A stretch of 64,000 bases of DNA from a candidate division FCPU426 bacterium (GTDB lineage: Bacteria; Oederibacteriota; Muellerivitia; Muellerivitales; Muellerivitaceae). Each line of letters opens with the position of its first letter. Position 1 is the stretch's first letter. The position numbers were made by a program, and so were the translations under genes. The DNA is taken from NCBI GenBank assembly GCA_963796105.1, contig CAWCKJ010000002.1, positions 320,001 through 384,000 of the forward strand, given 5' to 3'. This document shows, piece after piece, positions 34,746-56,953 of the stretch. The notes under the pieces were generated by a model. It saw only the letters and a list, made by a program, of their open reading frames with translations. It searched no databases and was not told the DNA's origin.

Positions 34746-34816
34746 GGGAATTATTTTGAATGTCTTTCTGATTGCACGTACCATTTGAATGTTTGGAAAA
34801 GGGGGTAAAGGAAGCC

Positions 34817-35431
34817 ATGGACAAGAGTTATCCCGTTGAACTTGAGATTTCTGGGCCCACGGCCATGTGGACCCGTCCGGATACGGGGGACGCACCCGTG
34901 AGTTATCTGGGGCCAACATACGCCGCCGTCAAAGGAATATTCGAAACTATTCATTATTTACAATTTGTTGAAGTGATACCAAAACGAGTCGAAATATGTC
35001 GTCCGATCATTTTTCATACATACAACACCAATTATGGGGGCCCCCTGCGTAAATCAAGAGTCATGCAAATAGGAAGCGGTTATCAATTGTTGGCTACCGT
35101 CCTAATCAACGTTTGCTACAAGTTATATGCGGTTGCGAGGGAATATCCGGCAGCCCAAGGCAAAGCGACCCGAAAATCCGAGGAATGGAGAAATAGGACG
35201 ACCTCGCCAGCCCACGCATACCAGGAAATGTTTTCCCGCAGATTGAAAAAAGGCCAATGGCACGACATGCCGTTCCTTGGATGGAAGGAATTCGTTCCCG
35301 ACTATTTAGGACCTCTTCGCTCTGAGACAAGCAAATGCGGCGACATTCGAGCTGACATTCCAAGCATGCTGTACCAAACTTTTTCCAAAAGGAATGGCCA
35401 GTACCTATTCCCCCGAATACAGAAAAATTGA
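34817..35431 (+). CDS. cas5: Cas5, type I-C-like; possible frameshift near the 3' end
   Basis: LEISGPTAMWTRPD...VSY..PT.AAVKGIFETI, PFLGWKEF. Removing one A in the run near 35387 would extend the frame to overlap the cas8 start. Confidence 0.85.
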   Translation: MDKSYPVELEISGPTAMWTRPDTGDAPVSYLGPTYAAVKGIFETIHYLQFVEVIPKRVEICRPIIFHTYNTNYGGPLRKSRVMQIGSGYQLLATVLINVCYKLYAVAREYPAAQGKATRKSEEWRNRTTSPAHAYQEMFSRRLKKGQWHDMPFLGWKEFVPDYLGPLRSETSKCGDIRADIPSMLYQTFSKRNGQYLFPRIQKN

Positions 35432-35470
35432 AATTGTTAATGGGGCCTATGATCCCAAAGGAGCCCCTTT

Positions 35471-37519: not shown

Positions 37520-37537
37520 AAATTAAGGAGGCGGTTT

Positions 37538-38417
37538 ATGGCTAAAAACGTAATAGCCGTGGGGATTCGACGAGCAGTTGGATTACTGGTGATCGAAGTT
37601 CGGAATTCGAATCCAAATGGCGATCCCGACAGAGAAAGCGACCCCCGCCAAAGACCGGATGGGAAAGGTGAGATTTCACCGGTGTCTTTTAAAAGGAAAC
37701 TTCGTGACCTTGTTCTCGAAAAAGAAGGTGATGTTTGGAAGGTTTTATCCAAAGAAATGGAATTAAATCCAAACCATTTTCAAATTCTTGAGGCACGGGG
37801 TAGGGTTCGTGAGCAAATTAAAAAGGAGCTGGATGACGACGATATGAAAAAATTCAAAGAGAAATATTGGGATGGTCGGATATTTGGAAACACTTTCCTG
37901 GAAGAAGGTGGTTCAGACACCATTCGCACCGGCATTGTTCAATTCGGGTTGGGTGTGTCCGTCGCTCCGATTGAAATTGAAAGGCAGACAAATACGAGTA
38001 AATCGGGTGTTGAGGAAGGAAAGGATCGTGGGATGGCTCCAATGGGCTACCGTGTTGTCCAGCATGGCGTCTATTGCATGCCATTTTTCGTCAATCCAAA
38101 CCTCGCACATCGCAGTGGATGCGCAGCGGAGGACATCGAACTTTTGAAAAGGCTGATACCCTATGCATACTCCCATACCAGATACCCATATCAGAAATAG
38201 CGTTGATTTGATTCACGGTTGGTATGTCGAGCATAAAAATAACCTTGGCTCATTCTCTGATTTTTCGGTCCTGGACGCCCTTGCGCCCAAGAAGAAAACC
38301 GACCCCGATAAGCCGTCTGGAAGCCGTGCAGAGTACGATATTCCCGAGATCAAGGACTTGCCGGATAGCCTGAAAAGTAAAATTGGCTCAATCAAGGACC
38401 TTTTGGAAATCGAATGA
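37538..38417 (+). pseudogene. cas7: Cas7 (Csd2-like), split by a frameshift near 38184
   Basis: NSNPNGDPD.ESDPR, KRKLRD, DGRIFG. The C-terminus (HIRNSVDLIHGWYVEHK) is in another frame; deleting 1 nt restores ...HTRSHIRNS.... Confidence 0.85.
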
Positions 38418-40460
38418 GCTATTTTGCCCACAGTGGTCGGCAGGATTGCGGAATACCGCCCCAGCTTTACGCAGACCATGCCATTCGTGTCCGTGATGGC
38501 GCATTTGATCGCGCCACCATTGTGGGTCGGTATATGAAGAATAAGTCGAACCTTTTGGGTGTTGCATGCGCTAGGGCGGGTGATTTCCACGACTTGGGAA
38601 AGTTACACCCGGAAAACCAAATAGTTCTTGGTGGAGTTACCCGAAGTGCAAATCGCCTTCCATTCCCACACGCGGATGCCGGTTGTGCGATATTGTTAAG
38701 AAGTTGCTTGCCTGAAGACCTTATTGCGGCACTGCTTTGTTATTCCCATCATATAGGGTTGCCGTCATTTCCAGAAGAGACGTGTGGAAGAAAAGTTTAT
38801 TTGAGGGATATTCGGTGTCTAAGCGAAACCGATGAAAATTTAGCTGCGTGGGTCGAACAACACAAGCGTTTGGTGCTGAAACGTGAAGGCCTTCCTGATG
38901 GGCAATGCGGTGTTTTGGACGAAAAGGACAGAATGTTTTTTCGTTTCGCGCTTTCCTGCTTAGCGGACGCCGACCACAGTGATACTGCACGGCACTATCG
39001 AAAAGAAGCTATTGTTCCAGAACTTTCACTTCGACCCGCCGAACGGTTGATGGCTTTGAAATCGTATGTTGCCGGATTGGGAAAGGATCGGAAAGATAGT
39101 CGTTCCCAAATGCGAACTCGAATTTTCGAAATTTGTTCGACATCCCAAGTGAAACAAAGGTTAGTAGCCTGTGATAGCCCGGTTGGTACCGGTAAAACGA
39201 CAGCTGTTATGGCGCATCTTCTTGATGTCGCCATTAAAAGGGGATTAAAAAGAATCTTTGTTATTCTTCCTTTCACCAACATCATCGACCAAGCCGTTGA
39301 GAAATATAGGGAAGCCATAGTCTTAAACGATGAATATCCGGAGGAAGCGGTTCAAGCCCATCATCACCGCATGGAATATGAAAATTACAACGTCCGGCAT
39401 TTGGCCGAGCGTTGGAAGAGCCCAGTGGTGATCACCACGGCCGTCAGGTTTTTTGAAACGCTTTCTTCTTCTTCGCCCGCTGTATTGAGGAACCTGCACC
39501 AACTTGCGGGATCGGCCATCTTTATCGATGAGGCACACGCCGCTTTGCCGGCAGGGTTATGGCCGCAGGCATGGCCTTGGCTTAAGGAATTGGCTGAATC
39601 CTGGGGATGTCATATTGTCCTTGGTTCTGGTTCATTGGCGCGGTTTTGGGACCTGCCGGAGTTTGATATACAGCCGCCTATGGTGCCGGATCTTTTACCA
39701 AGGGATGTTTACGCTGACACCTTAAAATCCGAAAAAGATAGGGTCATATATCGACGGGAAAAGAAAATTTTAAGTTTGAGCGATCTTGCGCGTTTTGTCG
39801 GTGATCAATCTGGGCCACGCTTGCTCATCATGAATACGGTTCAATCCGCAGCGGTAGTCGCCAGATTTATGATGAAGTCGTATGGGAAAAATAGTGTTCA
39901 ACATCTTTCGACGGCATTAACACCTTTTGATCGGGGGAAATCCCTTGAGATCGTTAAAAAGCGCCTTTCGGCGGGAAAAAATGACAAGGACTGGACCCTG
40001 GTGGCGACTTCCTGCGTCGAGGCTGGAATGGATTTTTCCTTTCGTACCGGTTTCCGCGAAATATGCAGTCTTACCAGTCTTTTGCAGATGGCCGGAAGAA
40101 TTAACCGGGAATTTGAATACAACGCATGCGATGTTTGGAGCTTTGAAACACGTAAAGTGGATGGACTCAACTGGCACCCTCAATTCGAAACATCTTCGAG
40201 GATACTTAAAGAAATATTCAACGAAGGAAAAGTTGGTCCTGATATGGTTTCAGAGGCATTAAGGCGAGAAATCCGGCAAAAGCCAATTGGCAGCAAGTCG
40301 GATGAGATAATGAATGCTGAAAAGGAAGGGGATTTTCCGAAGGTTGATGAATTATTCCGGGTTATTGATTCTTCCACTGTGACGGTTTTGGTCAACCAAG
40401 AACTTATCGGGAAAATCGAGAATGGGGAGGAAGTCCCCATTAAAGAGATTCAAAAATATT

Positions 40461-41448
40461 CATGCCTATCCGAACAACGCTTGCGCAGTAATGGGTTTTG
40501 CCAAAGCGCAAGCGGTTAAGGCCCGGTGAAATAAGGAATCTGGGTCATGGCGACGATTGAACCGATAAGTATATTCGCTCAAGTATCCAGGCAGATATTT
40601 CACGTTGACTCCATGATGGGTTCCTAGGATCCAAGCCTTGGCGTTGGAAATGAATCGGTGGACCCAAGGTAACCAGTGATTTAACACCACTGGGTCATTG
40701 GCTGTTACCTGGTACTCCACATCCACGTTTTCCAAGTTTCTCAAGCTGGGACTGGCATCCGTGTTTATCATGGCGCCTTTCTGGATTGCTTGATCGACGA
40801 ATGCTTGGGCTTCCCACTTGGTTTCTGCGGTCACCTTTATCTTTGCAAAACCCGCTTTCTCTTTTTTGCGCCCTTTCTCATCTATCCATTCTTTGCTTTC
40901 AACCGCCACCAGCACTTCAGCCTGGTTTTCCTTTTCTCTCTTGCCGAATACAGCCCCATCCAACTCAATGATTTCCTTGAGTTGGTAATTTTCATCCCTT
41001 TGTCGAAGACTTTCCCGAATCTTATGCAACATCCTCCAAACGGTATCGTAGGAGGGCATTCCCAATTGCCGCTGAAGTTCCAGGGCTGAAATGCCCCTTT
41101 TCCCTTGCATCACCAATCCAATCATCCTCAACCAGGTTAAGATTGGAATCTTGGATTTCCGGAAGATCGTTCCGGCTCGAAGCCGTATTTGCTTTCGACA
41201 ATAGTCACATTCCCGCACTTCGGGGCGGTTTTTGTGTTGCCAGAAACTTTCTCCTTCACATTGTGGGCAAACAAAGTCTTTTCCGGCAAAACGGCTCTTC
41301 CACACCCATTGACGTGCCTTTTCTTCTGTATCGATTTCCTTGAAAATCTCAATCCCCTTCATCCGTTGGTAGTTCATAATTTGCCCCTCCAACAATGAGT
41401 ATACTCCTGTATTCCTTTATTTCAACAGGTACCGTTTGGAGAGGCATT
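40461..41448 (-). mobile_element. IS1595-family insertion sequence (988 bp)
   Basis: Imperfect TIRs (CATGCCTATCCGAAC and reverse-complement AATGCCTCTCCAAAC); 8-bp target duplication AAAATATT at 40453-40460 and 41449-41456. Confidence 0.9.
40466..41395 (-). CDS. IS1595-family (ISXO2-like) DDE transposase
   Basis: Zn ribbon CPQC...CDYC, AGTIF, IELDG, NTD, YLSEYTYRFNRR. Confidence 0.93.
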   Translation of the reverse strand: MLEGQIMNYQRMKGIEIFKEIDTEEKARQWVWKSRFAGKDFVCPQCEGESFWQHKNRPEVRECDYCRKQIRLRAGTIFRKSKIPILTWLRMIGLVMQGKRGISALELQRQLGMPSYDTVWRMLHKIRESLRQRDENYQLKEIIELDGAVFGKREKENQAEVLVAVESKEWIDEKGRKKEKAGFAKIKVTAETKWEAQAFVDQAIQKGAMINTDASPSLRNLENVDVEYQVTANDPVVLNHWLPWVHRFISNAKAWILGTHHGVNVKYLPGYLSEYTYRFNRRHDPDSLFHRALTACALAKPITAQALFG

Positions 41449-41640
41449 AAAATATTCAATTCAAATTTGGTCAAATCGGATAAACGATTTGTGCTTGCGA
41501 AAGCTTGAGATGTTACCCGGCTTTTGGGCATGGACACTAGCTTATGACGATTTCTTAGGCTACATGAAAGGTGTTTTGGAGACACTAGAAGTTAAAGCTG
41601 GTCAACCTTTGGTTATTTAAATCGTACGAAAGGGTTAGGA

Positions 41641-42270
41641 GTGGACATGCCTTTTTCCGAGGAAGAAATCGTACTTATTTCAGCCCTCAACCAGTATGTA
41701 TTCTGCCCCCGACGGTGCGCTTTGATCCATGTGGAGGGGGCATTCGTACAGAATTACCATACGCTCCAGGGAACCTTGGAACATGGGGATGCGGATGTGC
41801 CGGGTTACGAGATCCGCAACGGAGCGCGGGTGGTACGGGCGCTTCCGTTAAGCTCCATGAAGTACGGCCTTAGCGGCAAGGCGGATTGGGTGGAATTCCG
41901 TGATAGCGTTCCATACCCGGTTGAAATGAAACATGGGGCCAGGCGGGCCTGGGAAAACGACGATGTCCAATTGTGCGCCCAGGCCCTGTGCCTGGAGGAG
42001 TCATTGGGCGTTGCCTGCCCGATGGGGGCCATTTATCACGTAGCATCCCGCAGGCGCAGGGAAGTGGACTTCGACGAAAATCTACGGGATATGACCGTGG
42101 AAACAGTTGGGAAGGTAAGGCAAATGCTTGCGTCCCTTGCCGTGCCGCCCGCCCAATTATTACCGCACTGCGACGGATGTTCCCTTCATGGTGCCTGTCT
42201 GCCGGAGTTGTCCGGGAACAGGCTGGAGATAGCCGCGAAAAAACTTTTCAAGCCCCTGCCATGGACATAA
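41641..42270 (+). CDS. cas4: Cas4
   Basis: ISALNQYVFCPRR, GKADWVE, PVEMKHG, QLCAQALCLEE, CDGCSL..AC. Confidence 0.95.
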   Translation: MDMPFSEEEIVLISALNQYVFCPRRCALIHVEGAFVQNYHTLQGTLEHGDADVPGYEIRNGARVVRALPLSSMKYGLSGKADWVEFRDSVPYPVEMKHGARRAWENDDVQLCAQALCLEESLGVACPMGAIYHVASRRRREVDFDENLRDMTVETVGKVRQMLASLAVPPAQLLPHCDGCSLHGACLPELSGNRLEIAAKKLFKPLPWT

Positions 42271-43292
42271 TCCTGAACACGCTTTATCTCATGACGGAGG
42301 GCGCATACCTCCACCGGGACGGCTTGGCCTTGAAAGTGGAGGTGGAAAAAGAGGAGAGATTAAGGGTACCGGTGCATCACCTGGAATCCGTGGTGGCCAT
42401 GGAGCAGGTCATGGTGAGCCCCTCGGCCATGGGGTTGCTGGCGGAGAACGGTGTTTCACTGACTTTCCTCAGCTACTCGGGCCGGCTGTTGGCGCGGGTG
42501 GACGCTCCCGTCTCGGGGAACGTGGTCCTGCGGCGCAAGCAATTCCGGGCGGCAGATGACTCCGCCAAGTGCCTGGCCTTGGCCAAATCATTCACGGCGG
42601 GGAAACTGCAAAACGCCCGGAACACCCTTTTGCGGGCGGCCCGGGACATTGAGAAGGGGCCGGATTCGGAGGCGTTGGATCAGGCGGCCCGGGATTTAGC
42701 GGACAGTCTGCGGGCTTTGGAACGGGTGGAAAGCCTGGAGGAAGTCAGGGGCCATGAGGGCTCCGCGGCCAGGGCCTATTTCGGTGTTTTCGACCGCCTG
42801 TTCAGCCAACAGAAGCTGGATTTCGTTATGGACGGAAGGAACAGAAGACCGCCTAAGGACCCGGTGAACGCCCTGCTTTCATTCCTTTACGCCCTCCTGC
42901 TTCATGACTGCGTGGCGGCTTTAAGTGCCACGGGATTGGACCCCAATGTGGGTTTCCTTCACGGGGATAGGCCGGGGAAACCGAGCCTAGCACTGGACAT
43001 GATGGAGGAATTTCGGACCCTTTTGGCGGACCGGCTGGTGCTGGCCATGGTCAACCGCAAGCAAGTGGCCGCCAAGGGGTTCGAGAAAAGGGAAGGGGGC
43101 GGGGTGGAGATGGACAACGGAACGCGAAAAGCCGTGGTGGCCGCGTGGCAGGAGCGGAAAAAGGAAGAAGTTACGCATCCCCTGCTGGACCAAAAGTGCC
43201 GGATCGGACAGTTGCCTTACCTCCAAGCCAAATTATTGGCCAGGGTTATCCGTGGCGACGATCCCGTTTACATACCCTGCGTTTTGAGGTGA
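42261..43292 (+). CDS. cas1: Cas1, type I-C
   Basis: LNTLYL, SGNVVLRRKQF, RGHEGSAARAYF, RNRRPPKDPVNALLSFLY, LDMMEEFR. Confidence 0.96.
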   Translation: MDIILNTLYLMTEGAYLHRDGLALKVEVEKEERLRVPVHHLESVVAMEQVMVSPSAMGLLAENGVSLTFLSYSGRLLARVDAPVSGNVVLRRKQFRAADDSAKCLALAKSFTAGKLQNARNTLLRAARDIEKGPDSEALDQAARDLADSLRALERVESLEEVRGHEGSAARAYFGVFDRLFSQQKLDFVMDGRNRRPPKDPVNALLSFLYALLLHDCVAALSATGLDPNVGFLHGDRPGKPSLALDMMEEFRTLLADRLVLAMVNRKQVAAKGFEKREGGGVEMDNGTRKAVVAAWQERKKEEVTHPLLDQKCRIGQLPYLQAKLLARVIRGDDPVYIPCVLR

Positions 43293-43298
43293 GGACCG

Positions 43299-43589
43299 AT
43301 GCTGGTGATCGTCGCATATGATGTGAACACTCTGGATAAACCGGGGAGGAAGCGGTTGCGGAAGATAGCCCAAGCTTGCAAGAACTACGGTCAGCGGGTT
43401 CAGAGGTCGGTGTGGGAATGTGTGGTGACCAAGGACCAATGGGTCATGCTGAGGGCGGCGTTGATGAGGATCATCAACAAGGACGAGGACAGCTTGCGGA
43501 TTTATTTTTTGGATGAAGAGGCCAAGGCCAAGACAGAGCATCATGGGATAGCGAAACCGCCCGATTTGGAGGAGCCGTTGCTGGTTTAG
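43299..43589 (+). CDS. cas2: Cas2
   Basis: VAYDV, GQRVQRSVWEC, DSLRIY. Confidence 0.96.
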   Translation: MLVIVAYDVNTLDKPGRKRLRKIAQACKNYGQRVQRSVWECVVTKDQWVMLRAALMRIINKDEDSLRIYFLDEEAKAKTEHHGIAKPPDLEEPLLV

Positions 43590-43775
43590 CGCCCAAGCGC
43601 CGACCCCAAGTGGGGACGGAACCGGGGTGGGTGTGCGATTTGAAATTTTGGCCTGAATTTTAAGGGTTTAGAGGAGGTGTTATGAGCGGAAAGGGTGGTA
43701 TCTACCCGCCGCATTTTCTGGGTATGCGCCGTAAGGCCCTAAAAGCCTTAATTGCCCAGGAGATTATGAGGCACA
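43590..43775 (+). promoter_or_regulatory. CRISPR leader
   Basis: Non-coding interval between cas2 and the first repeat. Confidence 0.7.
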
Positions 43776-46700
43776 GTTCCCCCGGCTGAGGAAGCCGGGG
43801 GCGGATTGAAACTATTTGGTATGCGTTCAATTCACCTATTAAATTGTTCCCCCGGCTGAGGAAGCCGGGGGCGGATTGAAACGTTCTTGGAGAAGCGGTT
43901 CGCGCTGATGTTGCTGGGTTCCCCCGGCTGAGGAAGCCGGGGGCGGATTGAAACCAAATGCAGTGCGGTTCCTATCAGCCCCAGGAGTTCCCCCGGCTGA
44001 GGAAGCCGGGGGCGGATTGAAACTAAAATCAAAAGGTAGGTGGATACGCCTTAAACCTCAAGTTCCCCCGGCTGAGGAAGCCGGGGGCGGATTGAAACCA
44101 TAATCCTGTCCTTGATTGTCGCTACGGGGGGCAGTTCCCCCGGCTGAGGAAGCCGGGGGCGGATTGAAACCAGTATTTGTAGAAGTTGCGTTGATTGGCT
44201 GAAGTTCCCCCGGCTGAGGAAGCCGGGGGCGGATTGAAACACGGTGAGAACATCGTTGGGGACATTGGAATAAAGTTCCCCCGGCTGAGGAAGCCGGGGG
44301 CGGATTGAAACCTTTAACAAATCAGGGTTAGGCATTTCATCCCTTAGTTCCCCCGGCTGAGGAAGCCGGGGGCGGATTGAAACTCTGGTGCTGTGGATTA
44401 TCACACTGCTTTGAAGTTCCCCCGGCTGAGGAAGCCGGGGGCGGATTGAAACTAAAACAGGGCATTACAGCCTCACACCACCCCGCAGTTCCCCCGGCTG
44501 AGGAAGCCGGGGGCGGATTGAAACATACAAAACGTTCCCGGCCGTGACCGGGTTGTATGTTCCCCCGGCTGAGGAAGCCGGGGGCGGATTGAAACTGACT
44601 ATGGCCATGTTGAACACAATCCAGGTTCAGGTTCCCCCGGCTGAGGAAGCCGGGGGCGGATTGAAACTCATCTGTCCCGAACAAAATCCCGAAATCTCCA
44701 AGTTCCCCCGGCTGAGGAAGCCGGGGGCGGATTGAAACATGGTCACGACATCATTTCCAACCGAAGAAGAAAGTTCCCCCGGCTGAGGAAGCCGGGGGCG
44801 GATTGAAACTCACCCTACGCTTCTTGATAAATTCAAGTTTGCGGGTTCCCCCGGCTGAGGAAGCCGGGGGCGGATTGAAACGTCTGCTCTGAAGAACCTT
44901 TAAATTTAGGTTTAGGTTCCCCCGGCTGAGGAAGCCGGGGGCGGATTGAAACTAGTTGTTCTTTTCGTCCAGGGTAGTCTCTCTCCGTTCCCCCGGCTGA
45001 GGAAGCCGGGGGCGGATTGAAACACGCAGACCCCCACTAATATTGCCGTCGACCAAGGGTTCCCCCGGCTGAGGAAGCCGGGGGCGGATTGAAACCGTAT
45101 AATCCTCCCATATGTAAAGGCTTACTTATGGTTCCCCCGGCTGAGGAAGCCGGGGGCGGATTGAAACCATACAATTGGAACCGTCCATCAATGGAGGAAA
45201 TGTTCCCCCGGCTGAGGAAGCCGGGGGCGGATTGAAACGCGAAATACGTTTCTTCATATATTACGAAAAAGTTCCCCCGGCTGAGGAAGCCGGGGGCGGA
45301 TTGAAACAGCCATTTGACGTTGTTTTTGAGGATAGCTAACTGTTCCCCCGGCTGAGGAAGCCGGGGGCGGATTGAAACATCGAAGGACCTGAATATCAAT
45401 TAAGAAGAAAGTGTTCCCCCGGCTGAGGAAGCCGGGGGCGGATTGAAACACTGCGGGAGTTTCGTTTTTCGGGTTCGCTCCCGTTCCCCCGGCTGAGGAA
45501 GCCGGGGGCGGATTGAAACATGCTGGTGGCGCAGCTATGAGTGGGGCTTTGCAAAGTTCCCCCGGCTGAGGAAGCCGGGGGCGGATTGAAACGTTTCGGA
45601 ACGGTTATTTGCGTCCGAACTCGTATGTTCCCCCGGCTGAGGAAGCCGGGGGCGGATTGAAACTCATTGGCGCAAGCGGGTGTAAGCAAAATATTACATG
45701 TTCCCCCGGCTGAGGAAGCCGGGGGCGGATTGAAACTTGGCTCATGGAATGATGTAAATGGTGTTGTCTGCGTTCCCCCGGCTGAGGAAGCCGGGGGCGG
45801 ATTGAAACATTAGATACCCCGGATGAATTGGTATTTACAACAGTTCCCCCGGCTGAGGAAGCCGGGGGCGGATTGAAACCTCAGCTGGCCGGTTCATTGA
45901 TTCAACAAATGAGGTTCCCCCGGCTGAGGAAGCCGGGGGCGGATTGAAACTGGTCACATGCATTCGAAAAATACATTATCAGGGTGTTCCCCCGGCTGAG
46001 GAAGCCGGGGGCGGATTGAAACAATGGTCCCGGCGGTCACGGTATGATCATTACATGTTCCCCCGGCTGAGGAAGCCGGGGGCGGATTGAAACACGTTGG
46101 AGGAGTCGGAAACGTACTTTTTGAACGTTCCCCCGGCTGAGGAAGCCGGGGGCGGATTGAAACGCGTAAGAAATTTCCTCAAGCGAAGCAAAATGCCAAA
46201 GTTCCCCCGGCTGAGGAAGCCGGGGGCGGATTGAAACGTATTATTTGATCTGGTTTGCGGTACTCGGTACTGTTCCCCCGGCTGAGGAAGCCGGGGGCGG
46301 ATTGAAACGTGATAGCAATCATCAAGTTCGTTGCGAGCAAATAGTTCCCCCGGCTGAGGAAGCCGGGGGCGGATTGAAACATTTTTTTCGGTGTGGAATT
46401 TAATTTCCTGCCACCAAGTTCCCCCGGCTGAGGAAGCCGGGGGCGGATTGAAACTTCGTTTTGAACGATAGCAACAATCAAGGCTGAAAGGTTCCCCCGG
46501 CTGAGGAAGCCGGGGGCGGATTGAAACCGTATGCGGCGGCGGTCCCTACCATCATTCCCCAAAGTTCCCCCGGCTGAGGAAGCCGGGGGCGGATTGAAAC
46601 ACGTTGGGAATGTTTGTTTACACCGGCGACTCAGGAGTTCCCCCGGCTGAGGAAGCCGGGGGCGGATTGAAACTCCATACCCCCTAAGATACGCATAATC

Positions 46701-47105
46701 TATTCCAGTTCCCCCGGCTGAGGAAGCCGGGGGCGGATTGAAACTTCTATGAATGCTGCTGCCAAAGTTGGTAGTGCTAGTTCCCCCGGCTGAGGAAGCC
46801 GGGGGCGGATTGAAACATTTTCGCATACTGCTGGTTCAGGACATATGCACGTTCCCCCGGCTGAGGAAGCCGGGGGCGGATTGAAACTAGCGTGAAGGAA
46901 GTAAAGGAAGTAAATAAAATAAAAGTTCCCCCGGCTGAGGAAGCCGGGGGCGGATTGAAACACGGTGTTCTTGTTTTTTTTCATGGCTCGCATTTGTTCC
47001 CCCGGCTGAGGAAGCCGGGGGCGGATTGAAACGCGAAACTAGCCCGGTTTGAATTGATCCTTTACCTCGTTCCCCCGGCTGAGGAAGCCGGGGGCGGATT
47101 GAAAC
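43776..47105 (+). CRISPR. CRISPR array: 47 repeats of 37 bp and 46 spacers of about 32-38 bp (hand count)
   Basis: Repeat GTTCCCCCGGCTGAGGAAGCCGGGGGCGGATTGAAAC with hairpin CCCCCGGCT/AGCCGGGGG and an ATTGAAAC end. Confidence 0.99.
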
Positions 47106-47159
47106 TATTGGAACAGGAGTAAAAACAATGGGGTCTGGCCACACGCTCCGCAGCGTGTG

Positions 47160-47458
47160 GCAGTGATCATTCGTCACTTTAGGCTATTGAGCCATTTTCC
47201 AATCAACGCCCACATTTGAACTTTCCGCATACCAATTGCATTCCAATTGGTCGGGTAATTCGCCCGACACCACAAATGGTTTATGGAAAGCTATTCGAGG
47301 AAATCAGGGGTCAGGCACCAAGCCCCTAGCTTGGTGCAGTGACCATTCATCACTTTAGGTACTTGAGAAATATCCCTGCTTTATCCCGCGATACCAATTG
47401 TTTTAAATTGGTCGGGTAATTCGCCCGACACCACAAATGGTTTATGGAAAGCTATTCG
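47160..47458. repeat. Imperfect tandem duplication with an identical 53-bp core
   Basis: AATTGGTCGGGTAATTCGCCCGACACC...GCTATTCG at 47245-47297 and 47406-47458. Confidence 0.85.
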
Positions 47459-47718
47459 TAAGGCCATTTGCAAGCCATTACCAACCGTCACCAATCAACT
47501 TGTACCAACTGCTTATGGCAGTTGGTACAACCAAATCTTGCCGTTCGCCGTGTGTGCTCACGGCAGGTGTGGTTGATTGGTGGGTAAATCCCCTCTGAAG
47601 TTCAGCCAGATATAGTAAAGCCGACCAAAAGAACCACTCGGCTTGACTGATCAAATCCCGTTTTTATTTTCCCCAGGACGACCCAAGAACAGCAATTTTG
47701 AATGCTAAATTTTGAATT

Positions 47719-48019
47719 ATGTGCAAATTCACATTTATATTCCCGGCCCATGGGCGGTTAATTGAATGAAATTTGTACTATACCAGCCTCTCAATTAGCT
47801 TTATGGAAGGCTGGCATGAATTGTGGTGGGCTCTACATTCGCGGTCTCATTCGAACCACTGGGGTTATTGGCAACTACCGAAACAACTAACAATGGCGCA
47901 TCGGTATTATGAATGATGTGCAAATTCACATTTATATTCCCGGCCCATGGCCGGTTAATTGAATGAAATTTGTACTATACCAGCCTCCCCATTAGATTTA
48001 TGGAAGGCTGGCATGAATT
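47719..48019. repeat. Two near-identical 104-bp direct repeats
   Basis: 47719-47822 and 47916-48019, about 4 mismatches. Confidence 0.85.
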
Positions 48020-48290
48020 ATTCGGTCTTTGATTTATCGGGTGGTAATAGCAGGCGTGGCGGCGGGTTAAGAAAGCTTTTTATGAGTATCTGCAGGTCAC
48101 ATTCCAGGGCCTGGGCAATCCGGTAAAGAGTGGTGATTTGATAATCCATCGCCCCCTTTTCCCATTTCTGCAACATGCGGAAGGTTACATTCAGGTCCCC
48201 ACTAAGTTGTTCCTGGGTCAGTCCCTTTTTCAGCCTTAATTCCCGGATTGTTTGCCCGATTTCTTTAAGCGCCGCTTTCTTATTCAACAT
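48018..48290 (-). CDS. XRE-family HTH regulator
   Basis: IGQTIRELRLKKGLTQEQLS...QKWEKG...LYRIAQALEC. Confidence 0.88.
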   Translation of the reverse strand: MLNKKAALKEIGQTIRELRLKKGLTQEQLSGDLNVTFRMLQKWEKGAMDYQITTLYRIAQALECDLQILIKSFLNPPPRLLLPPDKSKTE

Positions 48291-48416
48291 TCCGCAATTT
48301 TGCTTTAAATGCGCGACCCAGACCACGACCTATGGGTCGTGTCAAAATCGCCCGGTTTATTGTGTAATTCCCCTTGGGTATTCCTGGAGCCCCTCGTATC
48401 TCAGAGAGTGGTAGGG

Positions 48417-49035
48417 GGCCTGGAACCACGACACGCAGGAATCCTGGAACTCCTGGAACCGGCCTGGAACCACGACACCCGGGAAACCTTGAACTCCTGG
48501 AACCGGCCTGGAACCACGACACCCGGGAATCCTGGAACTCTGGAACTCCTGGAACCGGCCTGGAACCACGACACCCGGGAAACCTGGAACTCTGGAACTC
48601 CTGGAACTGGCCTGGAACCACGACACCCGGGAAACCTGGAACTCTGGAACTCCTGGAACCGGCCTGGAACCATGACACCCGGGAAACCTGGAACTCTGGA
48701 ACTCCTGGAACCGGCCTGGAACCACGACACCCGGGAAACCTGGAACTCTGGAACTCCTGGAACTGGCCTGGAACCACGACACCCGGGAAACCTGGAACTC
48801 TGGAACTCCTGGAACCGGCCTGGAACCATGACACCCGGGAAACCTGGAACTCTGGAACTCCTGGAACCGGCCTGGAACCACGACACCCGGGAAACCTGGA
48901 ACTCTGGAACTCCTGGAACCGGCCTGGAACCATGACACCCGGGAAACCTGGAACTCTGGAACTCCTGGAACCGGCCTGGAACCACGACACCCGGGAATCC
49001 TGGAACTCTGGAACTCCTGGAACTGGCCTGGAACC
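48417..49035. repeat. Tandem array: two 44-bp units, ten 52-bp units and a partial unit
   Basis: Unit GGCCTGGAACCACGACACCCGGGAAACCTGGAACTCTGGAACTCCTGGAACC, with four TGGAAC per typical unit. Confidence 0.95.
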
Positions 49036-49086
49036 GTAGAAAACAGGGGATATTGGCTGACTCAAGAACAAATGAAGGGGTTTTAT

Positions 49087-51105
49087 ATGGCTCAAGGATT
49101 ATCTGAAGTTTTGGAATGGTTGGGTCAAGTTGAGGTTATTAAAAACCAATTACAAAAGGATCCCCAATCCCCCAGGGCAATCCTGATGCAAACCCTCAAT
49201 GTTAAAAAAGGCCGTTTAAGTTATCTTTATAAGATAAACGCTTGTTTCGACCAACAGGCCTTAAATCGGGTCCGCCAAGCGGCCCAATCCACCCCTCCCG
49301 CCTTCGTCCCTTTCGGAAACGCCCGGGCCTTGGCTGTCTTGGGCGACAAGATCCCCAAACCTTATGAACCGGTCCATGAGGCGTTGGAAGTTGTTATTTC
49401 AAATCAACTCACTCTCCCGCAAATTGAAGCCCTGGTGGATCATATCGCCAGCGGCAAGCCAGCCAAGGATTTCGTTCCCAACCAGGCCAAAACGGATTCG
49501 ACTCCAGTTGGTCGCTCACCGCTAACGGATTCAACAACCCAACCTCAAGTGGTTTCGACAGAGCCTGTAGAAGATACGAATCCAGGAAATGACGCTGAGG
49601 ATTTCTTCGGTTTGAGCGGGCCTAATGTCCCGCCGAGGATCAACGAAATCAGGTCCAAGGTGAAGGCGGGCCAAAGGGTCGGCGTCAAGGATGGAATGCA
49701 TCTGGTCTCCCACATGCTCGCCAGCGGAATCATTAAATTCCTGGGTGGTTTTACGGGGATCAGCCATAAGGATTTGGAATCCCAAAACCTGGGTAAGAAA
49801 ACCCGCAAGGGCCTTTTCTGGCTGATCAAGCGCGCCTGGTGGCTTTTGAGATGGCTTTTCAAGCATGTCTGGCATTTACTCATGGCCGTCATTAAGGAAC
49901 CCTTCAAATTGATTTGGGTCCTCATCGGGGGGTACGTTAAAAGCGGGTTGGGCTTAGCCCTGCTCCTCGTCCTCATTTACGGGATTTACCTTTACCGCCA
50001 TGACCGCAAGGAATTCTGGTCCGATGTCGATGTCATAAAAAACTGGTCCCTCCAAACAGCGGAAAAGCAAATTAAAAATGAAAAATGGACAATGAAGAAT
50101 GAAAAATCAAAAACACCCACCATCACTGCCACAGTTCAAAACAGCAATGAAAAATTAACAACTCCCACTATCACTTCAGCAGTTCAGATTCAGAATCCCG
50201 CCAAACCCGAATCGGATCAAGAAATTGTACATTCTCCATTATCCATTATTCATTCCGCCGCCCCCGGCGAACTAGCAAAACCCAAATCGCATCCAGGCAT
50301 TGTTCATTCTCCATTGTCCATTATCCATTCCGCCGCCGGCGGGTTTGCGAAGCCATGGAAAGCCGAGGATGAGGATTATGATTTTTTATCCGAGGAAATT
50401 TATCCCATCCCGGAATCTTGCGTGATCAAGAGCCTCAAACCCGCGCTTGCCGGGGATATAAGCGGGAAAAAGGCTGAAAGTTATTTGGCCGATCTCCAGG
50501 ACGCCGGCAAGTATTCCATGTGGCTGGGGAAAGAGAAGATGTCGGTCCTGAAAGTGGAACTTGTCCCTAACGGCGTCATCCTGCATACGCAGGACCCACA
50601 GGAATCAGGATTGAAGGTGAGTTTTGATTGGGTGGAATTGACGGCCATCCATTGCGATAAGCTCCAGGTTTTTCCCCCAGGGGACATTCCGGGCCAAACG
50701 ATCTATCAATGCGGCTTGGTTATTCCTCCTTTCAAGAAAGCCATCACCATCGAATGCTCATCTGTGGAGAATTTAAGGCGCCTTTTATCAGCCCTGGAAT
50801 ATTGGATCAAGTCCGCGAAGGGCGGTGAGAAGGCCCCAATAACGGGATTGCCTTATCTTCACCAAGGCGTGCTGTTTACCGAAAAAAGCGGGGCGGCTGT
50901 GCTGTGGGTAGGAAGCCCGGTGGAAAAAGCGGGTTTGAGGCTGGGGGACGTGGTTTGGAGCCTGGATAAAGCCAATAGCTCCAAGATGAAAAGTTTCGAT
51001 TTGGAGAAAGCGTTGAACAAGCTTACGGCGGGAAAACACGATCTTGATGTCCTGCCGGGCGGGAAGGAGGGACCAAGGAAAAAAATTGAAATGTTAGTTC
51101 AGTGA
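49087..51105 (+). CDS. Membrane protein with an N-terminal ParB/Spo0J-like HTH region and a C-terminal PDZ domain
   Basis: PFGNARALAVL...VISNQLTLPQIEALV resembles Spo0J GHARALL...LSVRE.E.LV; central Trp-rich and hydrophobic helices; GSPVEKAGLRLGDVV is a PDZ signature. Confidence 0.6.
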   Translation: MAQGLSEVLEWLGQVEVIKNQLQKDPQSPRAILMQTLNVKKGRLSYLYKINACFDQQALNRVRQAAQSTPPAFVPFGNARALAVLGDKIPKPYEPVHEALEVVISNQLTLPQIEALVDHIASGKPAKDFVPNQAKTDSTPVGRSPLTDSTTQPQVVSTEPVEDTNPGNDAEDFFGLSGPNVPPRINEIRSKVKAGQRVGVKDGMHLVSHMLASGIIKFLGGFTGISHKDLESQNLGKKTRKGLFWLIKRAWWLLRWLFKHVWHLLMAVIKEPFKLIWVLIGGYVKSGLGLALLLVLIYGIYLYRHDRKEFWSDVDVIKNWSLQTAEKQIKNEKWTMKNEKSKTPTITATVQNSNEKLTTPTITSAVQIQNPAKPESDQEIVHSPLSIIHSAAPGELAKPKSHPGIVHSPLSIIHSAAGGFAKPWKAEDEDYDFLSEEIYPIPESCVIKSLKPALAGDISGKKAESYLADLQDAGKYSMWLGKEKMSVLKVELVPNGVILHTQDPQESGLKVSFDWVELTAIHCDKLQVFPPGDIPGQTIYQCGLVIPPFKKAITIECSSVENLRRLLSALEYWIKSAKGGEKAPITGLPYLHQGVLFTEKSGAAVLWVGSPVEKAGLRLGDVVWSLDKANSSKMKSFDLEKALNKLTAGKHDLDVLPGGKEGPRKKIEMLVQ

Positions 51106-51191
51106 AAAGCTGGTTAGCTGGGATTCAGGAAAAAATACTATTCACCACAGTTGTGCTTCGCACAGCACATGCCGACCTTCCTATTGAGAAA

Positions 51192-51468
51192 TTAAAGGGG
51201 TCGGTATCGTACCAATCTCAATTTAACTTTTATGGAAGATTGGCACAGAGACTCAGTTAAAGCTTTGATCGTGACAAGAGCTTTGCTCTTGCGCCCTGCG
51301 GGCTTTATGGCGCATCCAAAGGCCTCGGAAAAATAGATTTTCCCGGAGGCCGTCGGCTGTGCCATAGAACACGATCTGAAAAAATTCACCCTTTGCTATG
51401 TAGTAGCTGGGTCTCTGAGTCTCTGGGGTAAATCGGTTTATCCCATGTATCCCATGCATCCGTGGCAA
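51192..51468 (-). repeat. Dispersed structured non-coding element, copy A (core 51267-51376)
   Basis: Inverted homologue of 59276-59562 with multiple hairpins. Confidence 0.75.
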
Positions 51469-53740: not shown

Positions 53741-56700
53741 ATGTCGAATCAGAAGGCGATTATTTATAGGGACGAACGCATGATATCTAAAATCCTCCAT
53801 TCCTGTTTTTACCGCATGACGGCCGTGGCCATGGCCGCGATCCCGCTTTTGTTATCGCTTGCGGTTCCGGCCCAAGCTTCCATGGATTCCCACCTGAAAA
53901 AGGAATGGGCTTCCTTGTCTATTCAAGGGTCCTTGCCTTCCTCTCAACGGATCAGGTTGGCGCTGGGGCTTCCGCTGAGAAACAACACCGTCCTTCAACA
54001 GTTATTGAAAGACCTTTACGATCCCCGGAGCCCCGAATACCGCCATTTCCTATCCCCTCATGAATTCGCGGAAAGGTTCGGACCGTTCGATAAGGATTAC
54101 CAGGCCGTCCAAGACTTCGCCCAGTCCAACAATTTGCGCGTGGTGAAGACTTACCCTTCACGGATGATCGTGGACGTTGAAGGCACCGCGGGGGACATCG
54201 GAAAGGCGTTTGGCGTCAACCTTGTCACCCATTCACGGCCTGATGGGACCCTTTTCTACGCGCCGGACCGGGAGCCGAGGGTTGCTGATGGAATCCCGAT
54301 CCTTCACGCCTCGGGCCTGGACAGCTTCGACCGTCCCCGGCACAACCTCGTCATTTACCCAAAGGACACAGCCATGAAAAGGTCCGCCGGGGCGGTGAAG
54401 AACCTGGGCACGGGACCCTTGGGCAATTACCAGGGTTTTGATTTCCGCAATGCCTATTGTCCTGATGTGCCTGCCACCCTTAACGGGGCGGGGCAGACAG
54501 TCGGGCTGTTCGAGATCAACGGCTTCACCCTTTCCGATATCCTTCAATACGAAAGCACCTCCGTTCCCCCCCTCACGGCGCCAGCCCCCATCACCCACCT
54601 CCTGCACGGGTTCAACGGGGTCCCCACCGATACGGGCGACGAGAACGAGGTGACGCTGGATATCGACATGGTCATTTCCATGGCGCCTGGGGCCCAGGTC
54701 CTGGTTTACGAGGCGCCCGACACGAATGGGACTTTCGACGCCTACTCCAACGACATCCTGACCGCGATGGCCGCCCCTCCGCTTTGCCCCGAGATTAGTT
54801 GTTCCTGGGCCGGGTTCGGGGATACCACCACCGTGAACCTGCTGGCGGAATTCGCGGCCCAGGGGCAGGCTTTTTTCCTGGCATCCGGGGATTACGGCGC
54901 GTTCGGGACGGGGGATGTGCTTCCTTCCATGATATCGCCCGGTTCCCTGAGCCCCTATATCACGCTGGTGGGCGGAACCCAGTTGTGGACGGCCTCCGTG
55001 ACGGGGACCCCTCCCTCGGTTTCCTACGATACGGAATCGTCCTGGAATTCGGCTTTCGGCTCGAGCACCGGTGGAATTTGCCAGCAACAGCTCGCGATCC
55101 CCAGTTACCAGATGGCAATTCCCACTGGCTCTAACGGCAGTTCCGCCATGTGGCGGAATATCCCGGACGTTTCCATGGTCGCGGACAACATCTTTATCTA
55201 TAACGCCGGACAGCCCTCCTTCACGGGCGGGACGAGCGCCGCGGCCCCCTTATGGGCCGGGTTCATGGCCCTCGTCAACCAGCAGGCCCTGGCGGCCTCA
55301 GGCGTGAGCGTGGGTTTCGCCAACCCCTCCCTTTACTCCGCGGCCCTGGGTCCGAATTACCACTCCGACTTCCACGACATCGCGGACGGGAGCAACAACT
55401 GCTGGGACGGCCGGGACCCGGTGTTTTATAAGGCCGGGACGGGCTACGACCTCGCCACGGGCTGGGGAAGCCCAACCGGGCAGAACCTGATCAACGACCT
55501 GGCGGACCTCAAGGCCGCCCTTCCCACGCCGGTGGCCCCCACCCCCACCGCGACGCCGTACACGGCGCCTCTTTGCGCCCCCGTGGTTTCCTGGAGCCAA
55601 AATTCGCCCCTGGACGCGGCGCTGGATGGGTCGGGGAACTTATACGTCACCGACGCCAACGACAACCTGGTTTATGTTTACAACTTCCAGGGACAGGCCG
55701 TCACCCATTGGGGGGGCTCGGGAAAAGGCCATGGAACATTCAACACGCCCACCGGAATCGCGGTGGATGGAAACGGGAAAGTTTACGTCGCGGACTCGGG
55801 CAACAACCTCCTGCAGGTCTTGAGCACGAACGGCGTTTTCATCACCCAATGGTCAAGTTACGGGGGCGAGAGCTTCAACTTTCCCCAGGGAGTGGCGGTG
55901 AACTCGGCGGGGACCAGCGTTTACGTCACGGATTGCTACAACGGCCGGGTCGCGGTATTCGATCCCTCGGGGAACCCCTTGACCGGCTGGGGGACACCGG
56001 GCTACGGGGGAGGAACGAACTTTGAGGAACCCATGGGCGTTGCTTTGGACACGTCCCAGAACGTTTATGTCGCGGATTTTTACACGGGATTGATCCAGGA
56101 GTTCACCCCGGGCGGCTCTCCCATCACCCAATGGGACGCCACGGAGGGAACGTGCCTTTGGGCACCCAATTACCTGGAACTGGATTCCGCCGGTAATCTA
56201 TACGTATCCGACGCTTATGGCGACATCGGGGTGCTCAACACGCAGACGGGTTCCTGGTACTCCACCAAAATGCTCGATTCCACCGACACGGAGGGCATCG
56301 CGATTGGCCCCGGATACTGGTACATGTGCGTGCCGAGCGACAGTGAGTTGCTGAAATTCTGCCCCTGCCCGGGAAACCCCTGCCCCAGCTATACCCCTAC
56401 CCCCACGATTACCCCAACGCCTACCATTACCTACACCCCCACTCGGACGCCAACGCTCACCCAGACGCCCACTTACACCCTCACGCCCACGGCGACCATG
56501 ACGCCCACTCCGACCCCGACCATTACCCCCACCGCCACGATCAGTCCCACCCCGACACCTTCCCCGACCGGAACGATCACTCCGGTTGCCACCAACACAA
56601 TGACGGTTTCGATGACGCCTACTTTCACCCCTTCCGCAACCATAACGGTAACCCCCACGAGCCTCCCGGGCGTATGGATTGGATTACCCTATCCCAATCC

Positions 56701-56953
56701 AGTAAGGTCCGGCTCCGGGGTTTCCTTCCGTGTCCAGGTTTCCGGGCTTTCCACAGTGCGGTGGGAGGTGTTTACCACTTTGTACCGGAAGATCCGTGAT
56801 GAGACTGGATATGTATCGGGTAACAACCAATTTTCATGGGACTTGAGGGACAAGGAAGGGAATGAGGCGGCCAACGGCCTCTATTTCCTCCGCGTCCAAA
56901 TAAATGGTCTTGTTTCAACGTCTAAGATTTTCAAGGTGCTCCTTCTTAGGTAG
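53741..56953 (+). CDS. S53 (sedolisin/kumamolisin) protease with prodomain, NHL repeats, Thr/Pro stalk and T9SS-CTD-like C-terminus
   Basis: EVTLD, ASGDYG, GGTSAAAPLWAG, GYDLATGWGSP; NHL repeats FNTPTGIAVD; PYPNP...WDLRDKEG..AANGLYF. Confidence 0.92.
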   Translation: MSNQKAIIYRDERMISKILHSCFYRMTAVAMAAIPLLLSLAVPAQASMDSHLKKEWASLSIQGSLPSSQRIRLALGLPLRNNTVLQQLLKDLYDPRSPEYRHFLSPHEFAERFGPFDKDYQAVQDFAQSNNLRVVKTYPSRMIVDVEGTAGDIGKAFGVNLVTHSRPDGTLFYAPDREPRVADGIPILHASGLDSFDRPRHNLVIYPKDTAMKRSAGAVKNLGTGPLGNYQGFDFRNAYCPDVPATLNGAGQTVGLFEINGFTLSDILQYESTSVPPLTAPAPITHLLHGFNGVPTDTGDENEVTLDIDMVISMAPGAQVLVYEAPDTNGTFDAYSNDILTAMAAPPLCPEISCSWAGFGDTTTVNLLAEFAAQGQAFFLASGDYGAFGTGDVLPSMISPGSLSPYITLVGGTQLWTASVTGTPPSVSYDTESSWNSAFGSSTGGICQQQLAIPSYQMAIPTGSNGSSAMWRNIPDVSMVADNIFIYNAGQPSFTGGTSAAAPLWAGFMALVNQQALAASGVSVGFANPSLYSAALGPNYHSDFHDIADGSNNCWDGRDPVFYKAGTGYDLATGWGSPTGQNLINDLADLKAALPTPVAPTPTATPYTAPLCAPVVSWSQNSPLDAALDGSGNLYVTDANDNLVYVYNFQGQAVTHWGGSGKGHGTFNTPTGIAVDGNGKVYVADSGNNLLQVLSTNGVFITQWSSYGGESFNFPQGVAVNSAGTSVYVTDCYNGRVAVFDPSGNPLTGWGTPGYGGGTNFEEPMGVALDTSQNVYVADFYTGLIQEFTPGGSPITQWDATEGTCLWAPNYLELDSAGNLYVSDAYGDIGVLNTQTGSWYSTKMLDSTDTEGIAIGPGYWYMCVPSDSELLKFCPCPGNPCPSYTPTPTITPTPTITYTPTRTPTLTQTPTYTLTPTATMTPTPTPTITPTATISPTPTPSPTGTITPVATNTMTVSMTPTFTPSATITVTPTSLPGVWIGLPYPNPVRSGSGVSFRVQVSGLSTVRWEVFTTLYRKIRDETGYVSGNNQFSWDLRDKEGNEAANGLYFLRVQINGLVSTSKIFKVLLLR

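Follow-up and report, generated by a model that had tools for sequence, protein, structure and literature searches.

A predicted ParB-derived membrane protein and its phased direct-repeat array in a candidate division FCPU426 bacterium: a possible DNA-membrane tether

The window analysed here is a 64,000-nucleotide stretch of DNA from a candidate division FCPU426 bacterium whose 4.98 Mb genome, labelled G000 below, is assembled in 16 contigs (C1-C16); it covers G000:C2:320001-384000, C2 being a contig of 486 kb, and coordinates given without a contig name are window positions. It contains a cassette of two parts, a direct-repeat array whose sites appear half-site-like (48417-49035, + strand) and which is predicted to be a binding platform, and, behind it, a gene for a ParB-derived protein of 672 amino acids (49087-51105, + strand) that is predicted to cross the inner membrane once. 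Relatives of this gene which likewise lack the cytidine triphosphate (CTP)-binding domain ParB_N nearly all stand behind a helically phased array, and the core of the array is specific to each gene. Judging from sequence comparison, we are fairly confident that the protein would bind the array as its cognate site. We also lean towards the view that the cassette is an autoregulated DNA-membrane tether, in which the head of the protein would bind the array, repress its own gene, and hold the array, together with gene-less copies of it elsewhere in the genome, at the inner membrane.

The array

The array consists of two 44-bp units, ten 52-bp units and a partial unit, and ends 52 nt before the likely start codon of the gene at 49087. 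A reading of the DNA from its letters alone (the sequence-only reading) had described 620 bases of 44/52-bp units with more than 40 TGGAAC hexamers on one strand, and this observation is confirmed: the hexamer occurs 46 times on the + strand and never on the - strand, compared with 0.29 occurrences per 620 bases expected from its genome-wide frequency. Tandem Repeats Finder reports a period of 52, 10.5 copies and 97% identity, the copy number being that of the assembly. Each 52-bp unit, equal to five helical turns, contains five GGAA sites, at offsets 5, 21, 29, 37 and 46, and three of the five share one helical face at 10.4 bp per turn. The spacer of the window copy contains CACGAC, which is missing from most other copies of the window array.

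Three other identities for the array were considered and rejected. The array is not parS, because it contains neither TGGAACA nor an inverted half-site (TGGAACA/TGAAACA and inverted half-sites all have counts of zero), and it has no palindrome. It is not protein-coding, given six overlapping repeat open reading frames (ORFs) and a period of 52 that is not a multiple of three. It is not a CRISPR leader or a CRISPR- or TIGR-type guide array, since it has no unique spacers and whole units are 97% identical; the true type I CRISPR array of the window, with 47 exact repeats, ends at 47105 and is unrelated to it in sequence.

The same junction of array and gene was found again on C12 and C6. Both copies (C12:331175-333300 and C6:82811-86834) are broken patchworks of the cassette, whose parts are another array, an inverted piece of the gene start, an end of the insertion sequence (IS) IS21, a GGAAC array, the first 159 codons, a repetitive extragenic palindromic (REP) element and an HUH transposase. 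A fragment of the window gene, 32 bp long, lies inside an array at C12:298560.

The encoded protein

The ORF opens at 49072, and homolog alignment favours the second ATG, at 49087. Among Pfam families, the 672-residue protein has only a sub-threshold PDZ match, and neither Pfam nor sequence searches of the PDB identified the N-terminal domain (amino acids 1-138, 49087-49500), whose identity came from fold searches alone. Models were built from alignments of 32 N-domains (predicted local distance difference test score, pLDDT, 90.0) and 23 C-domains (pLDDT 92.5). Eight of the top ten Foldseek rows for the N-domain are Spo0J, ParB or Noc (probability 0.93-0.99), while matches to ParB, Spo0J, Noc and KorB overall have probabilities of 0.85-0.99 and E values of 0.3-1.6, none reaching E 0.001. 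The three best VIA matches are ParB 6s6h (Z 8.0, root-mean-square deviation (rmsd) 3.3, 100 residues aligned), Spo0J 1vz0 (Z 7.0) and KorB 8qa8 (Z 6.8), with KorB 1r71 at Z 6.2; small helix-turn-helix (HTH) and winged-helix proteins match only residues 1 to 55-60, at Z 5-6. These scores are modest for a helical domain, and the sequence evidence agrees with a ParB-type assignment. The N-domain profile reaches relatives with an N-terminal extension of 90-200 residues, and 37 of the 40 of these that were scanned match ParB_N, while weak hhalign matches to the genome's own ParB (E 0.12) place residues 22-48 on its HTH and align K41, within the predicted recognition helix (amino acids 40-49, 49204-49233), with its equivalent of R173.

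The window protein has no Pfam match to ParB_N (PF02195), and a lineage-specific ParB_N profile matches none of 36 short-type proteins, nor the 600 nt upstream of each. The proposal that the N-terminus resembles the ParB HTH region while lacking the CTP-binding domain is supported by the fold matches to ParB, Spo0J, Noc and KorB together with the missing ParB_N.

The same reading had placed several membrane helices and a PDZ domain after this head; a membrane helix and a PDZ fold are predicted here as well. Hydropathy gives one clear helix instead of several, at about amino acids 279-303, preceded by a Trp/Lys-rich amphipathic stretch (amino acids 241-303 in all, 49807-49995), and a PH-like domain precedes the PDZ domain. 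The membrane segment is an internal predicted helix, and the presumed topology is N-in/C-out. The PH-like domain (amino acids 455-588, 50449-50850; Z 8.2 to PH/FERM folds) and the bacterial-type PDZ domain (amino acids 590-672, 50854-51102; Z 10.9, rmsd 2.0, 78 residues aligned to 1y8t), which is optional in the family, are both predicted to be periplasmic. A homodimer prediction for the PH-PDZ part scored 0.00, which carries no verdict. Error-free short pieces of the gene are present in four public DNA runs; no RNA run is listed for the gene.

Pairing of genes with phased arrays

The pairing of gene and array was evaluated with one rule for all genes, which requires a phased array within 600 nt upstream. 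The ParB_N-less loci number 68 if near-identical copies are counted and if two viral matches and three loci whose upstream DNA is too short are left out. A phased array precedes the gene at 66 of these 68 loci and at 0 of 22 ParB_N-bearing loci, against a background of 78 of 3978 genes in G000. Of the two exceptions, one has an IS110 insertion upstream of the gene (L054), and at the other the gene is frameshifted and its array has degenerated (L096). Homologs preceded by arrays occur in 8 other genomes and in metagenome contigs that were assembled independently. Since the N-terminus is ParB-like and 66 of 68 loci carry arrays, what was found is neither a protein devoid of ParB similarity nor a set of homologs without adjoining arrays.

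The arrays at homologs are not GGAAC arrays: each gene has its own core of 9-10 bp. The gaps between cores are predominantly 21 bp (167) or 22 bp (122), 289 together, followed by gaps of 42-43 bp, and the mean gap in the 20-23 class is 21.3 bp. In many arrays of the family, such as those at L044, L050, L057, L058, L061, L101, L112 and L125, a gap of 41-43 bp, in which one site is skipped and the phase is kept, lies three or four sites before the end. Each of four motif patterns tested on five genomes was matched only where the same gene-array pair exists, and the window array was not found in five genomes that have only weak, ParB_N-type matches or none, in a search made without a positive control.

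Sigma-70-like promoters were found in the last 320 nt at 14 of 47 loci, compared with 3.3 expected from shuffles. By eye, the -35 element abuts the last repeat at some loci, and at others the promoter lies ahead of the whole array; L105 and L125 are examples of the promoter-abutting type. Both layouts, as read from the sequence, would suit autorepression.

Co-variation between head and core

Co-variation was evaluated in an initial set of 35 loci and, with 13 new loci under 70% identity, in 47 non-redundant loci in all; unsupervised motif anchoring put several cores in the wrong register. With 35 loci the partial correlation between helix and motif is 0.10 (p 0.008), and a window scan reaches significance (family-wise p 0.017) in the 3' half of the core. 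With 47 loci, motif similarity tracks amino acids 23-30, 38-48, 72-80 and 104-116, and not the core helices: the peaks are at 72-80 and 23-30 (r 0.23, family-wise p 0.0005), the helix window 40-47 has r 0.12 (p 0.0015), and values are near zero at 50-68 and 89-98. In leave-one-out prediction the helix window is the best 8-residue predictor (0.77, versus a median of 0.59).

In ParB, according to the available text of PMC7383237, parS is contacted by the recognition helix and by helices 6 and 8, the residues being Q162, G170-R173, N178, T179, G201 and R204. Nine contact-equivalent columns, mapped by hhalign except for columns 77 and 80, which were placed by eye, have r 0.19 (p 0.02 against entropy-matched sets) and r 0.16 in pairs under 50% identity. 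A post hoc inspection by eye associates Arg at position 41 with cores ending in AC[AC], and Asp or Asn with [GT]CA[TG].

The link which the sequence-only reading drew between TGGAAC and the parS half-site has some support. The cores of the 47 loci resemble the half-site of the genome's own parS more than shuffles do (mean 4.78 of 9, versus 4.29 +/- 0.19 for shuffles, p 0.017), and the window array is the most parS-like of the 47, yet it contains no full half-site and no palindrome.

The paralog family

The N-domain was matched in 8 of 41 genomes and, as a profile, in 19 of 99 genomes of the phylum; strong matches are limited to nine genomes of one family. A search of genome_contigs confirmed nothing, and among viral contigs there were two matches of 31 residues which fail the profile, so that no real match was seen there. 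Of 150 listed representatives, 82 begin at the HTH domain. In G000 the ParB_N-less paralogs comprise five intact genes, namely the window gene and those at C12:9469-11142, C4:1196536, C2:127625 and C4:724398, and three fragments. The near-complete relatives G002, G004 and G013 lack the CTPase-less clade. In the tree, a branch with support 99 separates the ParB_N-less genes from the rest (24 versus 22 rows).

The conserved core of the protein, as far as sequence comparison goes, is the head plus the membrane helix, because the C-terminal domain varies among paralogs, or is absent, and the outer domain is thus swappable. The membrane helix is present in 40 of 42 long ParB_N-less members and PH-PDZ in 21 of 42, and three of the five intact G000 paralogs stop shortly past this helix and have no periplasmic domain. 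Twelve members carry an alternative C-domain whose nearest atlas clusters are VirB8, DotI, TraE and TraK (0.86-0.89, a lead only). A profile of this VirB8-like domain matches five G000 ORFs of 186-199 amino acids, two of which directly follow a VirB4-like gene; the clusters that contain these two also include VirB6-like, excisionase and integrase genes. An hhalign comparison supports the link (E 2e-4 over 120 columns); the domain has no sequence match in the PDB, and PF03135 is matched in 0 of 5 genomes, though TraG-type VirB4 is present.

Two ParB_N-bearing relatives in G000 lack an array. L070 (C3:513315-516044) has a PH-PDZ part 57% identical to that of the window protein, an instance of domain shuffling, and L145 (C3:264432-265748) has an in-frame repeat expansion inside the DNA-binding domain.

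Gene-less arrays and the insertion of IS21

Phased arrays are dispersed through G000. There are 65 phased regions, which become 60 after merging and 55 after the removal of three IS ends and two coding repeats; these 55 loci total 22.9 kb, and since five have an intact family gene, about 50 are gene-less. Clusters of at least four copies of the window motif number 20; one of these is coding, and two others belong to another family read in reverse. About 15 further clusters of putative sites lie on six contigs. Two or more motif families score at 32 of the 55 loci, a count somewhat inflated by overlapping patterns, and some loci include copied pieces of the window gene, IS ends or REP-like units. 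Gene-less copies occur in G001, G016 and G023 as well; for two tested motifs of G022 none were seen. The gene-less arrays lie in 36 tandem, 14 divergent and 7 convergent gaps (background 425, 179 and 103), a context like that of the background. The window motif has no strand bias (7 leading, 12 lagging); counts of 12 versus 3 for another family are uncorrected and reflect a noisy skew, and were not used.

Complete IS21 copies lie in or at the edge of arrays in 13 of 16 cases, compared with 2 of 56 for IS1595 (Fisher p 7.5e-10), for which one copy is within 700 bp and the second is at 722 bp. By type, the IS21 count comprises 8 of 11 copies, with target duplications of 5-6 bp, and 5 of 5 copies, with flanks read by eye. 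The IS21 copies are not fully independent; the IS1595 control argues against mere retention. According to the part of PMC11208146 available, IstB selects bendable targets and IS21 has no strong sequence specificity, and the shape of the arrays alone could also explain the preference. Repressor-bound operator arrays are described as blocking replication forks in the accessible text of PMC1636447, and as both blocking forks and attracting IS608 in that of PMC5027513.

Proposed mechanism and alternative explanations

In the mechanism that we propose, the ParB-type head would bind its own array, with the result that the gene is repressed and the DNA is held at the membrane. The CTP clamp, which allows loading at one site followed by spreading, has been lost, and many fixed sites would supply the numbers instead, so that multivalency would replace CTP-driven spreading. 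Sites on one helical face would present a face able to point at the membrane. Among paralogs, contact residues and cores would have diverged together to give orthogonal protein-array pairs, and gene-less copies, about 15 for the window motif, would be bound in trans as further anchor points, with whatever benefit this may bring to the cell. The periplasmic part (PH-PDZ, VirB8-like or absent) would be an interchangeable accessory that likely serves clustering or contact with the envelope. Bound arrays that are bent or that stall forks would explain both the insertion of IS21 and the stacking of arrays into patchworks.

Several observations weigh against this mechanism. The co-variation is modest, is partly due to shared ancestry, and does not hold out of sample: at the 13 new loci the helix is no better a predictor of the motif than is the remainder of the domain (0.63 versus 0.74), the nine contact columns in pairs that include a new locus have r 0.09 (p 0.19), and rules fixed before the new loci were added matched 1 of 13, itself 66% identical to a training locus. 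Residue-by-k-mer Fisher tests do not favour the helix, whose features make up 1 and 0 of the top 10, and independent-pair tests yield at most 3 pairs on supported branches, which is too few. The ParB_N-less genes are one clade, and therefore arrays were gained and the CTPase domain lost in what amounts to a single event. The unit of the window array is atypical, with site spacings of 8/9/11/24 versus 21-22 bp in the family, and no promoter-like site was found beside the window array. Most G000 clusters carry motifs of its own paralogs; however, about a third have no intact gene that was found in G000, and G001 has GGAAC-like arrays with no close ortholog, so that arrays evidently persist without a binder. 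Tethering may also be a side effect of a membrane regulator.

This last point leads to a first alternative, which we consider unlikely: that the protein is a one-component regulator like ToxR or CadC, in which PH-PDZ senses an envelope signal, the array is an operator only, the gene-less arrays are its regulon or debris, and tethering plays no role. The predicted N-in/C-out layout, a PDZ domain like those of the HtrA and RseP sensors, arrays that abut promoters, and periplasmic domains that differ among paralogs are all as this explanation would have them. It does not account for the three intact G000 paralogs that have no periplasmic domain at all, it finds no conserved co-regulated neighbour, and the gene-less arrays show no preference for upstream positions. 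The 10-46 sites of an array are also more than an operator usually needs. The coupling of an extracytoplasmic PDZ signal to the DNA, which the sequence-only reading had suggested, is not supported as the core function, since PH-PDZ occurs in 21 of 42 long members and the membrane helix in 40 of 42.

It is improbable, too, that the cassette is a relic of a conjugative element or a selfish passenger, with a KorB-like regulator fused to a membrane or VirB8 part of a type IV secretion system (T4SS), an iteron-like array, and scattered arrays that are neutral products of recombination. The resemblance of the alternative C-domain to VirB8/DotI/TraE (a lead only), with its five G000 matches, would fit such an origin, as would the patchy distribution, the broken copies on C12 and C6 and the lack of synteny, and orphan ParBs are often tied to mobile elements, according to the main text of PMC12704722. 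Yet 75 of the 122 listed homolog-neighbour ORFs were scanned, and these include no integrase, relaxase, Rep or T4SS gene, nor any HTH_3 or ParA gene; the nearest array lies at least 15 kb from any of nine coupling-protein genes, with none on C1, C5, C13, C15 and C16; viral contigs hold no real match; and open frames, phasing and cores are kept across deep divergence.

That the array is a partition centromere, or is bound by the product of the neighbouring XRE-family gene, is very unlikely, although both ideas stood in the sequence-only reading and have something to recommend them: the cores resemble the parS half-site, and CACGAC occurs both in the spacer of the window copy and in a palindrome at the XRE gene. 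G000 has a canonical parAB elsewhere (C4:1578836-1580450) and two true parS palindromes (C4:875565 and C4:878345), 15-18 kb from dnaA, whereas the cassette has neither a palindromic site nor ParB_N, and no ParA gene was seen beside the family genes scanned. As for the XRE protein, no HTH_3 gene occurs among the 75 neighbour ORFs, the second copy of the cassette, at C12, has no XRE ORF alongside, and most copies of the array lack the CACGAC spacer. That the array arose in assembly, or is an ordinary minisatellite without connection to the gene, as the 97% unit identity and a copy number taken from the assembly might suggest, is barely credible given the same junction at C12 and C6, the arrays at homologs in 8 other genomes and metagenome contigs, and error-free pieces of the gene in four public runs.

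The tether can be extended to a more general proposal, which is doubtful as a whole: that the paralogs are orthogonal, CTP-independent DNA-membrane anchors, each of which would have a half-site code of its own, bind phased arrays at dozens of chromosomal places and bring them together at the inner membrane, where the co-localised arrays would recombine into patchworks and draw IS21. If true, this would be a new way to organise a bacterial chromosome and would provide a natural library of ParB specificity variants. Known ParB-family proteins rely on a CTP clamp and on palindromic sites of one or two types. The branch described here dropped the clamp and gained a membrane helix and a phased array for each paralog, and at least 47 non-redundant protein-motif pairs can be read from it; they would form a large natural data set on specificity change in ParB, which has so far been studied mainly in ParB versus Noc. 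With this system one could ask directly whether spreading can be replaced by multivalent fixed sites; it would also supply candidate orthogonal tools for fixing loci to the membrane, and a case in which IS21, a family described as lacking strong target sequence specificity, shows a strong preference for certain sites.

Neighbouring genes and other features

The divergent neighbour of the cassette is the XRE-family HTH gene (48018-48326, - strand; HTH_3, E 4.7e-12), which is not a conserved part of the module. At its start, a 7-bp inverted repeat with a 4-bp spacer can be read from the sequence (48324-48341) and is likely the operator of the XRE protein itself. A 114-bp direct duplication (47709-47822 and 47906-48019, 95%), parts of which match a dispersed hairpin family, lies downstream of the XRE gene. 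The neighbours of the cassette gene in the window are this gene and an outer-membrane barrel, neither of which is ParA or Rep, and when the ORFs flanking 46 loci were clustered, the only classes to emerge were repeat-rich or mobile ones, with no shared neighbours.

Dispersed non-coding DNA lies on both sides of the cassette. The stretch 47118-47600 comprises a REP-like palindrome and two dispersed units; near-full copies of these units number 5-11 in the genome, and several of the copies adjoin HUH transposase genes and phased arrays, and at 51141-51380 there are two more dispersed elements, with 19 and 26 near-full copies. The type I CRISPR-Cas locus occupies 34772-47105 and includes ORFs that by eye look like cas5, cas8, cas7 and cas3, then cas4 and cas1 (Pfam), cas2 and the 47 exact repeats, with an IS1595-type transposase within it at 40466-41395. 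A 1070-residue protease of kumamolisin type (S53/S8), fused to NHL repeats, a Thr-Pro stalk and a FlgD-Ig tail, is encoded at 53741-56953.

Elsewhere in G000, two clusters resembling integrative and conjugative elements, L143 (C1:39-50 kb) and L144 (C16:25-37 kb), contain VirB6-, VirB4- and VirB8-like genes together with a bacterial PH-domain gene, a TPR-GGDEF gene, SpoVG, an excisionase and an integrase. About nine coupling-protein genes lie elsewhere in the genome, several of them followed by a conserved gene of 270-300 amino acids.

Comparison with known systems

No description of the window family was found in the literature, in a search largely outside subscription journals. The main text of a survey of ParB-CTPase fusions (PMC12704722) does not use the words 'transmembrane', 'PDZ' or 'VirB8'; because the survey takes PF02195 as its starting point, it would miss a clade that lacks ParB_N, and its supplements may list ParB_N-bearing relatives.

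The layout of ToxR and CadC is a cytoplasmic DNA-binding head, one membrane helix and a periplasmic domain, and the same layout is predicted for the window protein; the best fold matches of the latter's head are, however, of ParB type and not OmpR winged helices, the periplasmic domain is optional, and there is no conserved target operon. Theta-plasmid iterons and the parC and tubC centromeres are direct repeats about two helical turns apart which lie beside the gene of their binder and are autoregulated. The window family shares with them helically phased direct repeats beside the gene of the presumed binder, and differs in that this binder is a ParB-type membrane protein and not a Rep or a ribbon-helix-helix adaptor; unlike iterons, its loci stand on large chromosomal contigs among unrelated genes.

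KorB-type regulators act at single palindromic operators. KorB of RK2 and the orphan ParB regulators VirB and BisD resemble the window protein in fold, in the use of a ParB derivative in gene regulation and in a link to mobile elements; unlike it, they have no membrane helix and, according to the main text of PMC12704722, are CTP-dependent sliding clamps. ParB/Spo0J with parS (6s6h, 1vz0, 4umk) provides the best fold match, and the co-varying segments include the equivalents of the helices that contact parS, as these are given in the available text of PMC7383237. The window family differs from ParB/Spo0J in having no ParB_N, no ParA neighbour that was found and no palindrome, and in a membrane helix that replaces the C-terminal dimer domain, and G000 has a separate canonical parABS.

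Noc (7nfu, 6y93, 7ol9) shares the ParB-type DNA-binding fold and couples specific DNA sites, dispersed over the chromosome, to the membrane, as is proposed here for the window family. Noc is described in the accessible part of PMC8429893 as a CTPase whose binding to the membrane is switched by CTP and which nucleates on 16-bp Noc binding sites (NBS); the window protein instead lacks a CTPase domain, carries a predicted integral membrane helix and periplasmic domain, and belongs to a family that pairs with direct-repeat arrays and includes several paralogs with different cores. The family would thus act partly like Noc, yet it falls outside both ParB and Noc when judged by the CTPase domain and the palindromic site.

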